64,000 nucleotides of DNA from an uncultured Actinomycetes bacterium (GTDB taxonomy: Bacteria; Actinomycetota; Thermoleophilia; Gaiellales; JAICJC01). Below the pieces are notes generated by a model that was not told where the DNA came from, did no database searches, and saw nothing but the letters and a program-made list of their open reading frames with translations. This document shows positions 6,702-13,458 of the stretch, piece after piece (position 1 is the stretch's first letter; every line of letters starts with the position of its first letter). The DNA is taken from the NCBI GenBank assembly GCA_963706075.1, contig CAVPLP010000002.1, forward strand, positions 345,626 through 409,625. The letters run 5' to 3'. A program made the translations under genes and the position numbers.

Positions 6702-8675
6702 TCAGAGCTCGACGTACGCGCCGACCTCGAACACACGGTCGGGCGGGATGCGGTACCAGCGGGCGACCGGGATCGAGTTCTGGTGCAGGAGCGCGAAGAG
6801 GCGCTTGCGCCACGGGGCCATGCGGGCGCGGCCGGTGGGCAGGATCGTCACATGGTCGACGTAGTACGACGTGTGGTCGAGGTCGATTTCGAGGCCCTGC
6901 CGACTGGCCTGCTCCAGCGCCGCCACGACGTCGGGCTCGTCCTGGTAGCCGTAGGTCGCGGTGATCGCGACGAAGCCGAGCCGGAGCATCTCGATCGAGA
7001 CGCGTGCGGCCTCGTCGACGTGAGGAACGGCGACGGTATGGACCTTCACGAGGACGACCTGCTCGTGGACGATGCCGTTGTGCTCGGCGTTGTTCAGGAG
7101 CGCGGTCGGCACGGTGTCGAGCGACGTCGTCAGGAAGACGGCGCTTCCCGGGATCCTGTTCGGCGGGTCGTCGATCATCCGGTTGATGTACCGGCGCAGC
7201 GAGACGCGCCCCTCCCGCATGGCGCGCGCCAGCGTGATGCGGCCGCGGTGCCAGGTCGTGAGGATCGTGAAGAAGACGGCTCCGACCACGAGCGGGAACC
7301 AGCCGCCGCTCAGGATCTTGGTGAGGTTGGCGGCGAAGAACGTGAGCTCAATCGAGATGAAGAACACCGCGCCCGGGATGACGACCTTGAGCGGCTTTCG
7401 CCACAGCGTCCGGAACACGACGAATGCGAGGAACGTGTTGGAGGCGAAGATCGCGCTGAGGGCGATCCCATAGGCGTTCGCGAGGCCGGTCGGGGAGCGG
7501 AACGTGAGCACGAGCACGATCACCGCAAACAGGAGGAGCCAGTTCACGATGGGGATGTAGATCTGCCCGATGATCTTCTTCGACGTGTGCCGGATGCTCA
7601 TGCGCGGCAGGAATCCGAGCTGGATCACCTGCTGCGTGACCGAGAACGCGCCCGAGATGACGGCCTGCGACGCGATCACGGTGGCGATGGTGGCAAGCAC
7701 GACCATGGCCTTCTGACCCGTCTGCCCTCCGGGCACCAGGAAGAAGAACGGGTTCACGATCGTCGCGGGGTGCGCCAGGATCAGGGCGCCCTGGCCCATG
7801 TAGTTCAGGAGCAGGGCCGGGAAGGCCAGCAGGAGCCAGGCGCGGGTGATCGCCTGCCGGCCGAAGTGGCCCATGTCGGCGTAGATCGCCTCGGCGCCGG
7901 TCACCGCCAGGAAGACGGATCCGAGGGCGAAGAACCCCATCTTCGGGTCGTCGGCCAGGAACTGCCCGGCGTAGGTCGGCGAGAGCGCCCGGATGATGCC
8001 GGGATGCGCCGCGACCTCCTTCGCGCCCAGGGCGCCGAGGACCAGGAACCACACCACCATGATCGGCCCGAACAGCCCGCCCACGGCGCCGGTGCCGAAC
8101 CGCTGGAGCGCGAACAGGCCGATGAGGATCGCGAGCGAGAACGGCACGATCTGGGACGCCAGGGCGGGCGACGCCACCTGGAGTCCGGAGACGGCCGACA
8201 CGACCGAGATCGCGGGCGTCAGCATACCGTCGCCATAGAAGAGCGACGCACCGAGCACCCCGACGATGACGAGACCGGTCTTCCGGCGGGTCTTGACGAC
8301 GCGCTCGATCAGGGCGACCAGCGCCATGATGCCGCCCTCGCCGTGATTGTCGACGCGCAGGATCAGGAGCACGTACTTCAGCGTGACGATGAGCATCAAC
8401 GCCCAGAAGATCAGCGACAGGGCTCCATAGACGCGCACCGGCGAGGGCGCCATCGGATGGTCGCCGCTGAAGAGGAGCTGCACCGTGTACAGCGGGCTCG
8501 TACCGATGTCGCCGTACACGACGCCGAGCGCGCCGAGCGACAACGCCGTCGCTCCCCATCGAGTCGAGCGTCCGGCCTCCTCGTGACCAGCGGCGACATC
8601 TGCCTTCGCCCGTCGCGCGCGCGACGGCGCCGCCAGCGTGCCCTCCGTCGCGGCCATGCTCACGTCAGCGCTCAC
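6702..8675 (-). CDS. kup: KUP/HAK/KT potassium transporter
   Basis: LGVVYGDIGTSPLY, GEGG, YGDGMLTPAISV, GAEAIYADMGHFG. Confidence 0.97.
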   Translation of the reverse strand: MSADVSMAATEGTLAAPSRARRAKADVAAGHEEAGRSTRWGATALSLGALGVVYGDIGTSPLYTVQLLFSGDHPMAPSPVRVYGALSLIFWALMLIVTLKYVLLILRVDNHGEGGIMALVALIERVVKTRRKTGLVIVGVLGASLFYGDGMLTPAISVVSAVSGLQVASPALASQIVPFSLAILIGLFALQRFGTGAVGGLFGPIMVVWFLVLGALGAKEVAAHPGIIRALSPTYAGQFLADDPKMGFFALGSVFLAVTGAEAIYADMGHFGRQAITRAWLLLAFPALLLNYMGQGALILAHPATIVNPFFFLVPGGQTGQKAMVVLATIATVIASQAVISGAFSVTQQVIQLGFLPRMSIRHTSKKIIGQIYIPIVNWLLLFAVIVLVLTFRSPTGLANAYGIALSAIFASNTFLAFVVFRTLWRKPLKVVIPGAVFFISIELTFFAANLTKILSGGWFPLVVGAVFFTILTTWHRGRITLARAMREGRVSLRRYINRMIDDPPNRIPGSAVFLTTSLDTVPTALLNNAEHNGIVHEQVVLVKVHTVAVPHVDEAARVSIEMLRLGFVAITATYGYQDEPDVVAALEQASRQGLEIDLDHTSYYVDHVTILPTGRARMAPWRKRLFALLHQNSIPVARWYRIPPDRVFEVGAYVEL

Positions 8676-8678
8676 CGT

Positions 8679-9131
8679 CTACTCCGGCAGAGCCTTGGGA
8701 TGAGATGACGGGATCGCCTGCCGGCGGCGCGCGGCGCGCCTCGCCGGAACGATCGCCACATCGGGCGCCACTCCGCGGGCGGCACGACGCACGCCCCACG
8801 ACGCACTGCCGACCAGGACGAGGGCATCGACCGGCCACGCCGCCTGGAGCAGCGCGGCGACGCTCCTGCACGGCACGATCTCGACGCGTGCCGGCGGGGT
8901 GAGCGAGCCTCCGATCTCGTCGGCGGCGTCGCGCAGCCGCTCGAGCCGGGCGGCGAGCCGCTGCGGCCAGGCGGTGATCGGGAGCGTCGCCGGAAGCACC
9001 GCCGGGATGAGGACGCGCACGACCTTGATCTCGTTTCGAGGCGCCGCCCGGAGCGCGTCGGCGAAGGCCCCGGTCAGGAGCTGGGGCTCGATGCGGGAGT
9101 CGGTGCAGACGATCAGGATGTGGCGTCTCAT
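8679..9131 (-). CDS. Hypothetical protein, degenerate USP-like alpha/beta fold
   Basis: Coupled to the APC gene (ATGA overlap); RHILIV start and DALVLVG motif resemble USP. Confidence 0.6.
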   Translation of the reverse strand: MRRHILIVCTDSRIEPQLLTGAFADALRAAPRNEIKVVRVLIPAVLPATLPITAWPQRLAARLERLRDAADEIGGSLTPPARVEIVPCRSVAALLQAAWPVDALVLVGSASWGVRRAARGVAPDVAIVPARRAARRRQAIPSSHPKALPE

Positions 9132-11047
9132 GTCCCGACCTGCTCTGGCCGCACGATCATGACGCGCTGGCGAGCCTCGGCGATGACGCGGCGCACGACG
9201 TGGTCGTACGACGGCCGCCTGAGCTCGACGCGCTGGGGCTCCGCCGCACGGACGAGGATCAGCTGGGAGTCGCGCCGGGTGGCCTCGGCGAGGATCGACT
9301 CGGCCGGGTCACGGGTGCGAAGGTGCGTGGTGAGGACGCGAATGCCGTATTGCTCGCCGATCGCGCGCCCGGACGCGGCGAGGCCCTCCACGACCTCATC
9401 GAGATCGTCGATGTCCATGTCCATCTCCTCTCCGAGAGGGATCTCCGTGAATGCGAGCAGCACCAGCGACGCCCGGCGCTCGGCGGCGAGCTGCGCCGCC
9501 ACCTCGACGAGATCGGCCGGCAAGCCCGTCGCGGCCGTAGAGACCGGGATCAGCATCGTCTGGAACTCGACCTCGAGGGCCGGCCCGGTCCGGGTCACGA
9601 CCTCGCGGCGAGTGCGCTCACCGAGCGAGAGCCCGAGCCGCGCGCGGTAGGCGGCGTACCCCGCGACTCCGGCGATCATCCAGGCCGTGCCCAGATATCG
9701 CGCGTCGCCCTCGAGCACCAGGACCGCCAGCCACGCGGACGTGGTGCACACGGCCCCCAGAACCGAGACGACGGGAATCCGGCGGCCGTCGAAGGCGATG
9801 TTCACGGGCGCTTCGACCGGCCGGTAACGGCCTGGATCTCGCCATCGGAGCGCGATCACGGCGAGCTGGACGCTCGTAAACGCGATCAGCGCGCCGTACA
9901 CGTAGGTGCCGGCGAGGAAGCTCGGGTCGCCGACGGCCCCCTGGAGGATCGCCAGCAGCGCCGCCGCGGCGGCCGAGGCGCCGATCGCCACGTAGGGAGT
10001 CTCCCGGGCCGGGTCGAGCTCGGCGAGGCGGGCCGGTAGCTGGTGATGCTGCGTCTGCCAGACGGCGAGCCGAGAGCAGCTCCTGAGGGCGGCGTGGGCG
10101 ACGAGCATCAGGAGGCCCGCCACAAGCAGGCCGACGATGTAGGAGAGGCCGGTCGAGAGCACGTGGAGCGGGACTGCGGCGACGATGCCGAGCACCGTCG
10201 GGCCGGCGGACGGGGCGCTCGAGATGGGCGTCGCCATCAGCGCCACGAGCGAGATCGCGGCGCTCAGCGTGATGGCAGACGCGATGACACCGGCCGACGT
10301 CGCTGCCAGGTCGCGATCGGGATCGCGCGCCTCGGCCGCCATGTCGCCGATCGCCTCGACGCCCGTGTAGGCCACCATCGCAAGCGCGCACGCCAGGATC
10401 ACCTGGCTGAGCGAGGGCGCCGTGCCGAAGTGCACGCTCTGCTGGATCACCTCGGGCCGGAAGACGAACACCAGGCCCAGGAGCACCAGCAGGAGCTGGA
10501 CCACCAGGTCGAGAAGGCCCGCGAACACCGCCAGGTTCGCCGAGAGCTCGAGGCCGCGGATGTTCGCCGCCGCCACGATCACGATGACGGCCAGCGCCCC
10601 TCCAACGGACCACCAGCCCGATGCGAGCGGGCTCCAGAAGACGCTCAGATACCGCGCGGCGAACAACGCCGAGAGTGCCGCCGTCGCGACCAGCGCCAGC
10701 GTCATGGCCCAGCCGGTGACGAAGCTCGCGAGCTCGTCGAAGGCATGGCGCGCCAGCGCGGCGGAGCCGCCCGCCTCGGGGAAGAGGGAGACGCCCTCGG
10801 CGTACGCGGCGGCCACCGCGAGCACGATGAGCCCGCCGACGACCAGCGCGACCGGCGCCAATCCCAGCCCGTGGATCGCGACGACGCCCAGCGCGAGAAA
10901 GATCCCTGACCCCATGCGCGGGTATGCCGAGGCGAAGAGCCCACCGCGCCCACGAGCGAGCCGGCCTCGCACCTGACGCCGGCGGACGACCGGCGAACGA
11001 GACTGACGCGGAACCATGTGGGGTGTCGACCATGCGGCCATACCCAC
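9128..11047 (-). CDS. APC-family transporter fused to a C-terminal universal stress protein domain
   Basis: GSGIF, YAEG..FPEAGG, AYTGVE, ~12 TMs, then TMLIPV...VIAEARQRVMIV; start uncertain. Confidence 0.85.
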   Translation of the reverse strand: MGMAAWSTPHMVPRQSRSPVVRRRQVRGRLARGRGGLFASAYPRMGSGIFLALGVVAIHGLGLAPVALVVGGLIVLAVAAAYAEGVSLFPEAGGSAALARHAFDELASFVTGWAMTLALVATAALSALFAARYLSVFWSPLASGWWSVGGALAVIVIVAAANIRGLELSANLAVFAGLLDLVVQLLLVLLGLVFVFRPEVIQQSVHFGTAPSLSQVILACALAMVAYTGVEAIGDMAAEARDPDRDLAATSAGVIASAITLSAAISLVALMATPISSAPSAGPTVLGIVAAVPLHVLSTGLSYIVGLLVAGLLMLVAHAALRSCSRLAVWQTQHHQLPARLAELDPARETPYVAIGASAAAAALLAILQGAVGDPSFLAGTYVYGALIAFTSVQLAVIALRWRDPGRYRPVEAPVNIAFDGRRIPVVSVLGAVCTTSAWLAVLVLEGDARYLGTAWMIAGVAGYAAYRARLGLSLGERTRREVVTRTGPALEVEFQTMLIPVSTAATGLPADLVEVAAQLAAERRASLVLLAFTEIPLGEEMDMDIDDLDEVVEGLAASGRAIGEQYGIRVLTTHLRTRDPAESILAEATRRDSQLILVRAAEPQRVELRRPSYDHVVRRVIAEARQRVMIVRPEQVGT

Positions 11048-11142: not shown

Positions 11143-11586
11143 TCAGGCCGAGCGAGCCGGGTCAGGGACGATCATGACCGGGCAGCGCGCATGCTGAACG
11201 ACGTGCGCCGCGACGCTTCCGACCAGCGCCGCCACGAGCGGGCCGTGGCCGCGCGACCCCATGATGATGAGGTTCGCGCCGCGCTCCTCGGCGAGGCGGC
11301 AGATCTCGGTCGCCGCGTCGCCGCCGACGAGATGCGTCTCGGCCGTGACGCCGGCCTCGCGAGCCCGATCCATCGCCGCGTCCAGGATCAGCCGGGTGGC
11401 GTCGCGGCCGGCGTAGAACGTCTCTTCCGACATGTAGGCCGGTGCCCCGAGCGCGCCGTTGGGCGGCGCCGACCACGCCCCGACGAGGTCGAGCGTGGCG
11501 CGTGAGGCCCGCGCCTCGTGAAGAGCCCGCTCCAGAGCTGCGTTCGCGGATGGGGAGCCGTCGGTGGCTGCGATGATCGTGGGCAT
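11143..11586 (-). CDS. Universal stress protein
   Basis: IIAATDGS, LIIMGSRGHG, GSVA..VV.HARCPV; RBS AAGGAGG. Confidence 0.95.
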   Translation of the reverse strand: MPTIIAATDGSPSANAALERALHEARASRATLDLVGAWSAPPNGALGAPAYMSEETFYAGRDATRLILDAAMDRAREAGVTAETHLVGGDAATEICRLAEERGANLIIMGSRGHGPLVAALVGSVAAHVVQHARCPVMIVPDPARSA

Positions 11587-11615
11587 GACCGCCTCCTTGG
11601 TACGCGGATCGTAGA

Positions 11616-11712
11616 TGGCCGCCGCCGGGGAGTCGAACCCCGAAACGCCGGGTCATGCCGACGTCGACCGCGATCAGCGGGCACTCGGAGGATGCCGAAC
11701 CAGGCGGTGGCC
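11616..11712 (-). ncRNA. Non-canonical tRNA-like cloverleaf with long variable arm
   Basis: Hand-folded acceptor, D-like, anticodon-like, 8-bp variable and GGGG-TTCGACT-CCCC arms, ending GCCA. Confidence 0.5.
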
Positions 11713-11818
11713 CGGCATCAGCGTGAGGACGGATTTCGCGTGCGGGGTTCTACGGCACGAGCCCGATCGGGGATGGGGGCGCACACCGATGCCGATCCGC
11801 GAGTCGCCGCCGTAGGGT

Positions 11819-12205
11819 GTGAGCGTGTTGGGGTCTCGGGACATCCGCTCGTCGGCGCGTTCCGGTCACACGAAGGACGTCGTCGGCACACCGCGCGACG
11901 TTGTCGCGCCACCGCAGCGATCCGGCCCCGAGGGCATCGGGGCGGTGGAGGGATTCCGGGTGGACGGGCCCGACGGCAGGATCGGCGTGGTGACACGCGT
12001 GTCGTCGAGCTCGGCCGGCGAGGCTCCCGACACGATCCACGTCGTCACGGGCCTCTTCATCGTTCGCGTCGTGCCCGTCGCCGTCTCCGAGATCGTCCAG
12101 ATCGACGCCGAGAGGCGGCGGCTCCTCGTCCGATCGATGGTGCGGCTCCCGCGCTCGAAGCACGTCGCGCGGATGCTCCGGCGCTACCTCGCGTCAATCA
12201 CCTGA
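11819..12205 (+). CDS. PRC-barrel-like protein
   Basis: EGFRVDGPDGRIGVV ... GLF..RVVPV..I..ID. Confidence 0.6.
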   Translation: MSVLGSRDIRSSARSGHTKDVVGTPRDVVAPPQRSGPEGIGAVEGFRVDGPDGRIGVVTRVSSSSAGEAPDTIHVVTGLFIVRVVPVAVSEIVQIDAERRRLLVRSMVRLPRSKHVARMLRRYLASIT

Positions 12206-12630: not shown

Positions 12631-13458
12631 TCACGCACCGGCATCGGGGGATCCACGTAACGCGGCGCCCGAAACGTGGTAGCCGGCGCCGGGCGCGCCC
12701 GGCGGCCCGTACTCGAGAAACCGGCCCAGATCCCGGAAGCCGACGGCGGCGTACACGCCCTCGGCCATCTCGGTCGACTGGACGCTCGCCGTCTCGCATC
12801 CGCGGTCGCGCGCATCGTGGAGGGCGATGGTCGTAAGGGCCGTGCCCAGGCCGCGCCGCCGGGCGTGCTCCAGGGTGCCGACGTTGTAGATCCCGCAATC
12901 GGAGCCGAGATCGAACGCCAGCGCGACGGCGACGTTCTCGCCGTCGAGAGGCGCGACGAGGACGTGAAACCTTGCCGGATCGGCGCCCGCGAGGAGGCCC
13001 GGCGGAAACCCGCTGGCGCGCAGATACTCGCCCCAGTCCGCCGGCGCGAGCTCGATCTCGGGTCGCGGCAGGCGGATGTCGTCGAGCGCCATGCCCATTG
13101 CACGCGTCGTCTCCTGGAGCGTGTAGCCGCGCTGCTCGAGATCGCCCCTCATGGGCGCGTCGCTCTCGTGCACCCAGGCGGCAAACTGCGTGACGCCGCC
13201 GGCCGTGTACGCGGCCTCCATCGCCTCGACGGCATCGGCTCGCTCGGCGGCCCCGAGGTCGCGCTCGAGGAGGGCGTTGTTGTAGAACGCGCGCTCGGGG
13301 CCGCACGGGAAGACCCCTGCGGTCACACCGGGCAAGCGCCGGACGGCAGCATCGGCTGCGCCGCGCGCGTACTCCTCCCACGCCGCGAGCATCGTCTCGG
13401 CTCCACGGGCGTAGAGGTCGGAGTCGGTCAGCGCGGTCACCGCACCCAGTCCGACCAC
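12631..13458 (-). CDS. GNAT family acetyltransferase
   Basis: IYNVGTLEHARRRGLG, VY..VGF; true start probably GTG at 13440. Confidence 0.9.
   Translation of the reverse strand: MVGLGAVTALTDSDLYARGAETMLAAWEEYARGAADAAVRRLPGVTAGVFPCGPERAFYNNALLERDLGAAERADAVEAMEAAYTAGGVTQFAAWVHESDAPMRGDLEQRGYTLQETTRAMGMALDDIRLPRPEIELAPADWGEYLRASGFPPGLLAGADPARFHVLVAPLDGENVAVALAFDLGSDCGIYNVGTLEHARRRGLGTALTTIALHDARDRGCETASVQSTEMAEGVYAAVGFRDLGRFLEYGPPGAPGAGYHVSGAALRGSPDAGA

Follow-up and report, generated by a model that had tools for sequence, protein, structure and literature searches.

A conserved tRNA-like RNA module in the leader of a universal stress protein gene from an uncultured Gaiellales bacterium

Is a cloverleaf that can be drawn just ahead of a universal stress protein (USP) gene a transfer RNA, the remains of one, or a part of the messenger RNA of that gene? 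The question is raised by a stretch of 64,000 nucleotides (nt) from an uncultured Actinomycetes bacterium of the order Gaiellales (contig CAVPLP010000002.1, positions 345,626 to 409,625 of the forward strand), which as a whole we call the window and whose genome we refer to as G000. On its minus strand, the initial annotation had drawn a non-canonical cloverleaf in the leader of a USP-potassium operon together with a competing hairpin, and had proposed a regulatory leader, a processing signal, a new allo-tRNA or a decayed tRNA gene. We read the minus strand at 11711-11616 again and found exactly the letters reported, at the correct coordinates, and ARAGORN places a 94-nt tRNA-Ile(GAU) at 11617-11710(-). 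From the comparison with relatives we conclude with strong confidence that 11614-11682 is a conserved, lineage-specific structured RNA and no tRNA gene.

This conserved core (11614..11682, minus strand) is composed of three hairpins followed by a G-rich tail, GGCGGCGGC-CAUC, and is laid out like the 3′ two-thirds of a class II tRNA. H1 is the anticodon-like hairpin GCCCG/CTGATCG/CGGTC (11666..11682), whose stem pairs are invariant; H2 is the long "variable-arm" hairpin (11644..11665), with an invariant CAUGAC loop; and H3 is the T-arm-like hairpin CGGGG-UUCGACU-CCCCG (11626..11642). The near-invariant 3′ tail, GGCGGCGG(Y)CAUC (11614..11626), which also reads GGCGGCGGYCAUC, corresponds to the acceptor 3′ strand plus "CA" of the cloverleaf as originally drawn. 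We aligned 16 homologous sequences, 14 of them distinct (alignment A1, the source of covariance model R1), and used in addition a set of 33 distinct sequences with full flanks, 17 from genomes and 16 metagenomic, some of which are nearly identical to each other. A1, the alignment of USP-type copies described below (A2) and the comparison of the window with locus L002 all include L002 from G015, an unpublished genome. Across the three hairpins, 99.2% of the paired cells of A1 were able to pair, compared to 38-59% when the 3′ partners were slid. In the H2 stem all cells were paired and two pairs had changed on both sides among the 14 distinct rows (CG in 11 and GC in 3; GC in 8, CG in 5 and AU in 1), the arm being 8 bp long in the window and 6-7 bp, with covariation, in relatives. 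The H3 stem was invariant except for a change from G-C to G.U in 2 of the 14 rows of A1 and in 5 of the 33 sequences of the larger set. Since such a change in a T stem is tolerated only if the RNA has the sequence of this (minus) strand, it also indicates the strand of the RNA.

The larger set defined the limits of the module. Mean column identity was 0.92-0.99 from the long arm to CAUC and 0.41-0.48 on either side, and conservation ended directly behind the CAUC tail; 22 of the 33 sequences carried the tail as GGCGGCGG[T/C]CATC and the remainder deviated by one or two letters. The H1 loop was the variable part, reading CTGTTCG in 11 sequences, CTGATCG in 10, CTGATTCG in 5, CTGCTCG in 3, CTGACTCG in 2 and CTGATCA in 1, with one sequence unparsed; its length was 8 nt in 7 of the 33. 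Folding energies were unremarkable, with z = -1.12 over 100 nt and z = -0.67 over the 181-nt leader, and the thermodynamic fold of the 100-nt stretch contained no cloverleaf. Given its resemblance to the 3′ two-thirds of a class II tRNA, the core may descend from one.

How far the module extends among relatives was assessed at several depths. A DNA search of 61 related genomes revealed that only the 3′ part (about 11614-11684) is kept, with 87-96% identity in 16 genomes of the same genus; the core of G069 fell in the same range, and the 5′ part aligned only in G015 (90%) and partly in G025. Within the family, the core was found in 19 of 65 genomes, G000 counted, and by genus in 16 of 30 genomes of the own genus, 2 of 4 of the sister genus and 0 of 30 of five other genera (E up to 1e-6 throughout). 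Each carrier has one copy, as does G000. Model R1 matched 14 of the 151 genomes of the order, with scores of 92-101 bits in 12 genomes including G000; all 14 belong to the own family, and the 105 genomes of four other families gave no match. Weak R1 matches in G036 and G086 were not counted as members because they are partial or degenerate. At the G036 locus (L051/L018), some 400 nt past a tRNA-Leu and ahead of a trigger-factor-like gene, the long arm and T arm are degenerate, with an 8-nt T loop and an altered arm loop. This copy reaches only 38 bits and may represent a family member in decay. Over 185,579 species genomes (one per species), the exact core pattern occurred at 17 loci only, each titled as a Gaiellales bacterium or as an uncultured Actinomycetes metagenome-assembled genome (MAG), and a slightly looser pattern retrieved 22 soil metagenome contigs. 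Rfam at gathering score matched no family in 16 homologous loci apart from neighbouring true tRNAs, and a literature search turned up no paper on such an element, which is no proof of its being unpublished.

The remainder of the drawn cloverleaf did not share this conservation. As originally laid out on the minus strand, the structure comprises an acceptor 5′ strand, GCCACCGCC (11711-11703); a D-like stem GTTCGG/CCGAGT with the loop CATCCT (11700-11683); the anticodon-like hairpin GCCCG/CGGTC with the loop CTGATCG (11682-11666); an 8-bp variable arm, GACGTCGG/CCGGCGTT, with the loop CATGAC (11665-11644); the T arm GGGG-TTCGACT-CCCC (11641-11627); and the acceptor 3′ strand GGCGGCGGC (11626-11618), with CA next to it. 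Its 5′ half (11683..11711), which consists of GCCACCGCC, TG and the D-like arm, is specific to USP-type copies and could not be aligned with the other homologues. In a control with random flanks, we kept the native 83 nt from the anticodon-like hairpin onward and replaced the 78-nt 5′ flank by random 78-mers from the same genome; ARAGORN built a tRNA with the same 3′ end in 730 of 2000 trials, 657 times as Ile(gat). Similarly, the 66 nt upstream of GGCGGCGGC offered it no better pairing than did 400 66-mers drawn at random from the genome (mean z = -0.26 over the 33 sequences), and the duplex of the window (-16.6 kcal/mol; z = -0.92) was matched by 16% of the random pieces. The position of the best 5′ partner varied among the sequences, between 8 and 58 nt upstream, and with a lowered threshold the 5′ strands that ARAGORN drew differed between loci. 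The acceptor branch can be drawn as 9/4 (the initial annotation), 7/5 (ARAGORN) or 8/4 with one base over, and because the 5′ strand is at chance level none of these arrangements carries weight. Thus, the 3′ part of the cloverleaf stands, strongly conserved, whereas the acceptor 5′ strand and the D arm do not; likewise, the proposed check for homologues and covariation yielded homologues and covariation in the long arm and no support for the acceptor and D arms.

The competing 12-bp hairpin, GAUGCCGGGCCA/UGGUUCGGCAUC (11691..11719, minus strand), does exist, and close relatives have preserved it to about the same degree as the cloverleaf's 5′ half. In A2, an alignment of five USP-type copies, the acceptor was 86.4% paired with zero two-sided changes, the D stem 96.7% paired, and the competing hairpin 93.3% paired with one two-sided change (AU to GC). 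Minimum-energy folds favour the competing hairpin over the cloverleaf; the A2 counts favour neither.

A functional non-canonical tRNA, related to allo-tRNAs or to selenocysteine tRNA (tRNA-Sec) and either decoding AUC/AUU or charged with serine, is the reading that the ARAGORN call and the long variable arm, a trait of allo-tRNAs that the element does possess, would invite. With default settings, ARAGORN called the element in 4 of 17 homologous loci, with identities that disagree (Ala cgc, Ile gat twice and Asn gtt), and it made several other doubtful calls of 90-94 nt in G000. The Rfam search at gathering score, run as the other half of the suggested check, went the other way: it returned only a true tRNA-Leu and a true tRNA-Thr in the window (RF00005, cut-off 29 bits) and nothing on the element. 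When the search was relaxed (351 nt), the best match to the element was tRNA-Sec (RF01852; 22.5 bits, E = 0.033, gathering score 47), followed by the mascRNA type (RF01684; window 17.8 bits, L010 24.5 bits, gathering score 42.5). In 10 homologous loci, where a score of roughly 24 bits was needed to appear, no tRNA match with E up to 1 fell on the element.

The features by which a tRNA is recognised pointed in the same direction. We found no conserved acceptor stem with a 5′ strand, no G18 G19 in the D loop (CAUCCU in the window) and no tRNA-type 7-nt loop with U33, a purine at 37 and a lineage-stable anticodon: the loops vary, are 8 nt long in some sequences and have C at position 37, 3′ of the "anticodon", and the second pair of the H1 stem, always C.U or C.A, is never formed. 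The centre of the loop is GAU and not the UCA of tRNA-Sec. Allo-tRNAs have a 12-bp acceptor branch (8/4 or 9/3), a tRNA-Sec-like D arm with a tetraloop, G73 or U73, and very diverse anticodons (Mukai et al. 2017, PMC5389517). The last of these traits fits the variable triplet; the D stem of the window, in contrast, is 6 bp with a loop of 6 nt, and the discriminator is C in the ARAGORN register or A in that of the initial annotation. An ordinary tRNA-Ile(gat) is already encoded in G000, as is a separate tRNA-SeC(tca), called at C1:594526-594619. Because the true tRNA genes of this genome lack an encoded CCA, the "GCCA" end of the element carries no weight. We therefore consider a functional tRNA of this kind very improbable and have given up the proposed kinship with allo-tRNA or tRNA-Sec. 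A practical warning follows for GC-rich genomes, in which ARAGORN builds a cloverleaf around any real T arm with a long arm; a null test should come before any such "odd tRNA" is interpreted as an allo-tRNA or as a change of the genetic code.

The scan of G000 also brought up other unusual calls. ARAGORN reported two tmRNA genes, at C2:1020602-1020971 and C3:332694-333047, with the tags ANDETYALAA and AESDLALAA; the second may represent a genuine extra copy, an erroneous call or MAG contamination. There are also two degenerate near-copies of tRNA-Ser, at C1:105095-105184 and C4:3890-3978: the anticodon loop is shortened in one, and the T arm is damaged in the other. They may represent pseudogenes or remnants of attachment sites, and an intact tRNA-Ser(tga), at C1:102140, lies close to one of them.

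In the window the module precedes the USP gene (11143..11586, minus strand; Pfam Usp, 8.5e-36), which has its ATG at 11586-11584 and a Shine-Dalgarno sequence, AAGGAGG, at 11598-11592. Downstream of USP follow a fusion of an APC permease with USP (9128-11047; Pfam AA_permease_2, 9e-32, plus Usp), an open reading frame (ORF) of 150 aa (8679-9131) and Kup (6702-8675; Pfam K_trans, 2.1e-176). On the upstream side, codon-position GC suggests two small convergent genes, at about 11819-12205 (+) and 12234 to about 12560 (-), which lie between a GNAT acetyltransferase gene (12631-13458) and the element and have no Pfam match. Owing to the small plus-strand gene, the element sits in a divergent intergenic region, of roughly 230-310 nt, inside the USP leader.

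We compared this arrangement with that of the homologous loci. The gene downstream is USP in the window, G015, L092, L099, L102 and L105 (start at +27 after CAUC), VIT1 in L004 and L098 (+4), a small membrane protein in seven genomes that share the same upstream flavodoxin-domain gene (+20), an AAA_21 ATPase in L009 and L014 (+34), an ABC ATPase in L094 (+46), bPH_6 in L053 (+22) and an ORF without known family in L087 (+19). Seven contexts thus have a co-oriented start codon 4-46 nt after CAUC, with the module on the strand of the gene and near its ribosome-binding site. In L089 the next gene, YCII, starts at +139, and where aldehyde dehydrogenase is the downstream gene, a conserved leader of its own, about 180 nt long, lies in between. 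The flanks differ right after the module even between loci that share their upstream side (L086/L104, L089, L101), and the downstream genes belong to no one recurrent family or pathway. For this reason the suggested tie to potassium or cyclic di-AMP was dropped: homologues precede unrelated genes, and a link to potassium appears nowhere outside the clade of the window. No integrase or transposase turned up in a scan of 12 neighbour families within 8 kb (flavodoxin, aldo-keto reductase, SDR, MarR, MFS and similar).

The region upstream of the core was analysed for signals of transcription. Semi-conserved motifs, GTAGAACCCCGC, AAATCCGTCC and CTGATG (11716..11753, minus strand), align across contexts, and about 40-100 nt of them move with the module between loci; they may be a promoter or part of the RNA. 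A scan found 0 sigma-70-like sites around the element and no terminator-like site after or around the module. The motifs may resemble an ECF-type promoter, GAAAC-N17-CGTC, which is a candidate only. A profile of the motifs run over the genome matched mainly the aldehyde dehydrogenase leader, in inverted orientation. RNA data came from assembled contigs of four soil metatranscriptome runs, in which uncovered bins (e.g., 11144-11265) say nothing. Three contigs join the element to the USP coding region (11463-11660, 11556-11708 and 11556-11698) and another reaches toward the upstream region (11657-11794), a weak hint that module and USP are co-transcribed. Separately, ten loci (L008, L009, L011-L016, L095 and L097) carry a hairpin, GCGCGGG-AAA-CCCGCGC, directly behind the flavodoxin-domain gene and some 100-130 nt ahead of the T arm, with compensatory changes from G-C to A-U in L009 and L014; GTAGAAnCCCGCG occupies its place in other contexts. 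This hairpin could belong to the RNA or serve as terminator for the upstream gene.

Given that the module stands just ahead of ribosome-binding sites, shares the strand of the gene and has no terminator, the best single reading is a lineage-specific, tRNA-like module in the 5′ leader of the adjacent downstream gene, acting in cis on translation initiation or mRNA stability. We hold it tentatively, at somewhat less than an even chance, an estimate that covers the whole statement, cis action included. Of the roles originally proposed, that of a regulatory leader or processing signal has held up insofar as there is a conserved structured RNA with tRNA-like arms, without an Rfam family, in the USP leader and on the strand of the gene; the role itself is what we consider most likely, and cis action and any switch are inferred. 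The module would then be part of the leader of the gene directly downstream, here the USP-permease-Kup operon, and a folded tRNA-shaped domain, positioned between a few and about 45 nt ahead of the start codon, would favour expression as tRNA-like leaders do in vitro. An off state might arise by alternative pairing of C-rich 5′ segments, either in the competing hairpin or between CCGUCCUC/ACCGCCU and the ribosome-binding-site sequence GGAGGCGGU. It is possible, and at present doubtful, that these copies make up a previously undescribed family of tRNA-derived leader modules, a portable, three-arm, single-copy device for translational or stability control, which would have come to stand before different stress, transport and detoxification genes as the uncultured soil Gaiellales evolved. 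Through its invariant loops, such a module might respond to a ligand or to a tRNA-recognising factor.

Several observations weigh against the cis-leader reading. There is a single copy per genome, yet it stands before at least five unrelated downstream families without a common function, a combination that is unusual for a riboswitch-type element, and in two contexts (L084/L101 and L013/L085) the next gene is convergent. About half of the genomes of the genus lack the module, many of these being incomplete MAGs, and in G012 the VIT1-leader-aldehyde dehydrogenase locus exists without it. No closing helix, switch or ligand, nor any alternative-pairing platform, is supported by covariation; since the 3′ tail is invariant, pairing with it cannot show covariation at all. 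We considered a long-range closing stem (ACGCGAAAUC/GAUCCGCGU in the window; ACGCG/CGCGU) and rejected it, since three of its five pairs are lost in L105 and L092. The metatranscriptome contigs lack strand and transcript ends, and DNA may have been carried over into the RNA libraries. The invariance of the H2 loop and the T loop in the 22 metagenome loci is partly built in, as the search pattern held those letters; the CAUGAC loop and the T arm are also invariant in the genome-derived set, which was collected by BLAST and covariance model. Finally, the module has no canonical D-loop GG with which to form a tRNA elbow, and in yjdF RNA mutation of that element abolishes the effect (PMC9142559).

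The main rival is a stand-alone small RNA gene with a tRNA-like domain, transcribed from its own promoter (the GTAGAA/GGGAAACCCG ... CGTCC motifs) and trimmed by tRNA-processing enzymes, which would act in trans or bind a tRNA-recognising protein while the downstream genes are mere neighbours. We think it less likely than not by a wide measure, and still the alternative to be taken most seriously. It would account well for one copy per genome in any context, for a conserved unit that takes in the 40-100 nt of motifs moving along upstream and stops exactly at CAUC with flanks that diverge just behind, for the two contexts with a convergent next gene, and for H2 and H3 loops as invariant as a recognition surface. 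On the other hand, seven contexts place a co-oriented start codon within 4-46 nt and no terminator follows the module, and the RNA contigs that join module to USP and reach upstream to 11794, past the guessed start, speak weakly against it. Its promoter, of ECF type by consensus, is no more than a candidate, and no target set emerged, GGTCATGC being no more enriched at gene starts than control 8-mers. Bacterial Y RNAs (YrlA) carry a tRNA-like domain and their partner, the Rsr (TROVE domain) protein, is encoded in the same genome, usually nearby. A reading as a Y RNA was rejected, because PF05731 (TROVE) had 0 matches in G000 (91% complete) while control genomes matched as expected.

Two further readings appear improbable to us, about equally so. 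The module could be a processing signal, in which RNase P or RNase Z recognises the T arm with an acceptor-like helix, cuts the leader and sets the 5′ end and the stability of the downstream mRNA. The canonical T arm with, directly behind it, a strand for which a C-rich 5′ partner is nearly always at hand, the location directly before ribosome-binding sites and the sub-threshold likeness to mascRNA agree with this, whereas the acceptor-like helix, at chance level and unconserved in place and sequence, does not, and the invariant H2 loop and H1 would be left unexplained. Alternatively, the 3′ part of an old class II tRNA gene might survive as a relic, an attachment-site remnant or a decayed gene with no present function. 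The conserved portion, from the anticodon arm to the 3′ end, is indeed what tRNA-targeting integrases duplicate, the downstream flank is variable, and the 5′ half is lost or unconstrained. Against a relic stand a core that is about 90% conserved with compensatory changes between flanks that cannot be aligned on either side, the lack of an intact tRNA with this 3′ part in G000 or among the 17 species-wide loci, and the lack of an integrase among the neighbour families scanned; the plain decayed tRNA gene of the initial annotation is for the same conservation and long-arm covariation unlikely.

Possible pairing partners of the module were examined as well. In the window, the apex of the H2 arm, GGCAUGACC (11659-11651), is the exact complement of GGUCAUGCC (11590-11582), which spans the USP start, and the minimum-energy fold of the leader pairs the two. 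The 9-mer occurs 61 times in G000, counting both strands, and since the complementarity is absent from other gene contexts, we regard it as a lead and not as a finding. Folds of the whole 445-nt leader disagree between loci. A pairing of the H2 loop with the 3′ tail (AUGACC/GGUCAU) was discarded because the tail base is U, C or A while the loop is constant. The CGAU(G/C/U)AU motif seemed to vary together with the H1 loop; as the letters are not complementary, we rejected pairing, and the correlation probably reflects phylogeny. At the aldehyde dehydrogenase loci, a pairing of the upstream motif with GCAUCGGGG..CGCACGGAUC was set aside, since the partner belongs to that gene's own leader and is independent of the module. 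Action of the H2 apex in trans on GGUCAUGC, before the aldehyde dehydrogenase Shine-Dalgarno sequence, was also rejected: the motif is present in G012, which lacks the module, is absent in genomes with the module elsewhere, and is not enriched at gene starts.

The loci around VIT1 and aldehyde dehydrogenase form a series. It runs from module-VIT1-leader-gene (L004/L098) through a VIT1 that is cut down (L090, L103) to five genomes in which VIT1 is deleted and the module stands directly before the aldehyde dehydrogenase leader; in G000 that leader occurs alone. The series explains these loci better than a MITE-like (miniature inverted-repeat transposable element) insertion with an "empty site" in G000, which we rejected. 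In L103, what comes after the module's CAUCGCACAUG and the start of VIT1 is not the rest of VIT1: a stretch of low GC that contains an inverted repeat, CTGCAAAAG...CTTTTGCAG, takes its place and looks like the junction of an insertion or rearrangement. The aldehyde dehydrogenase leader is itself structured-looking, with a hairpin, GCAUCGGGG...CCCCGAUGC, and then GUGCGGCCGUGCGnUUCGCGGUCA before the Shine-Dalgarno sequence. It occurs in 15 of 31 genomes of the genus, with or without the module, and had no Rfam match in the loci scanned; an example is L113 (G000:C1:1062889-1066166), about 180 nt upstream of the start at C1:1064522(-), and others are L106-L112 and L114-L120. We regard it as a candidate separate RNA motif.

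Set against known systems, the module shares something with each of several tRNA-like RNAs. With Y RNAs of the YrlA type it has in common a T arm that ends a stem of distant 5′ and 3′ segments and the presence of one copy per genome; it differs by the lack of an Rsr/TROVE gene in G000, of an Rfam match and, in some copies, of support for a long closing stem. The mascRNA/menRNA family (RF01684), which is mammalian, resembles it by a weak match over the T arm and the 3′ strand and in the idea that a longer transcript may contain a tRNA-like signal for processing; with scores far under 42.5, the likeness goes no further than a generic T arm with acceptor. Allo-tRNA and tRNA-Sec share the long variable arm, the canonical T loop, an extended acceptor-type stem that can be drawn and a central triplet that is diverse among relatives, while the module has a 6-nt D loop, a C/A discriminator, a 7- or 8-nt loop with C37 and a 5′ half at chance level. 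Gaiellales-type actinobacteria are not among the allo-tRNA clades named in the consulted passages of PMC5389517.

The best functional analogy for a cis effect on translation is offered by yjdF RNA (RF01764) and by tRNAs grafted into leaders. In vitro, translation rose 2- to 6.3-fold when tRNAs were placed upstream of a Shine-Dalgarno sequence (Trachman et al. 2022, PMC9142559), and in the off state of yjdF the T-arm region pairs with the ribosome-binding site (PMC9142559). Like yjdF, the module places a tRNA-shaped domain in a 5′ leader just before the ribosome-binding site, and its T-arm or 5′ segment, being C-rich, can pair with the Shine-Dalgarno sequence. Unlike yjdF, whose model RF01764 did not match around the element at gathering score or at E up to 10, it has no Rfam match, no conserved D-loop GG, a class II long arm and no consistent downstream gene or known ligand, and it comes from another phylum. 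Its host is a soil lineage without a cultured model and with almost no known RNA biology. If the module does act in cis, it would be the second natural tRNA-shaped mRNA leader after yjdF, the first in Actinomycetota and the first with a long, class II arm.

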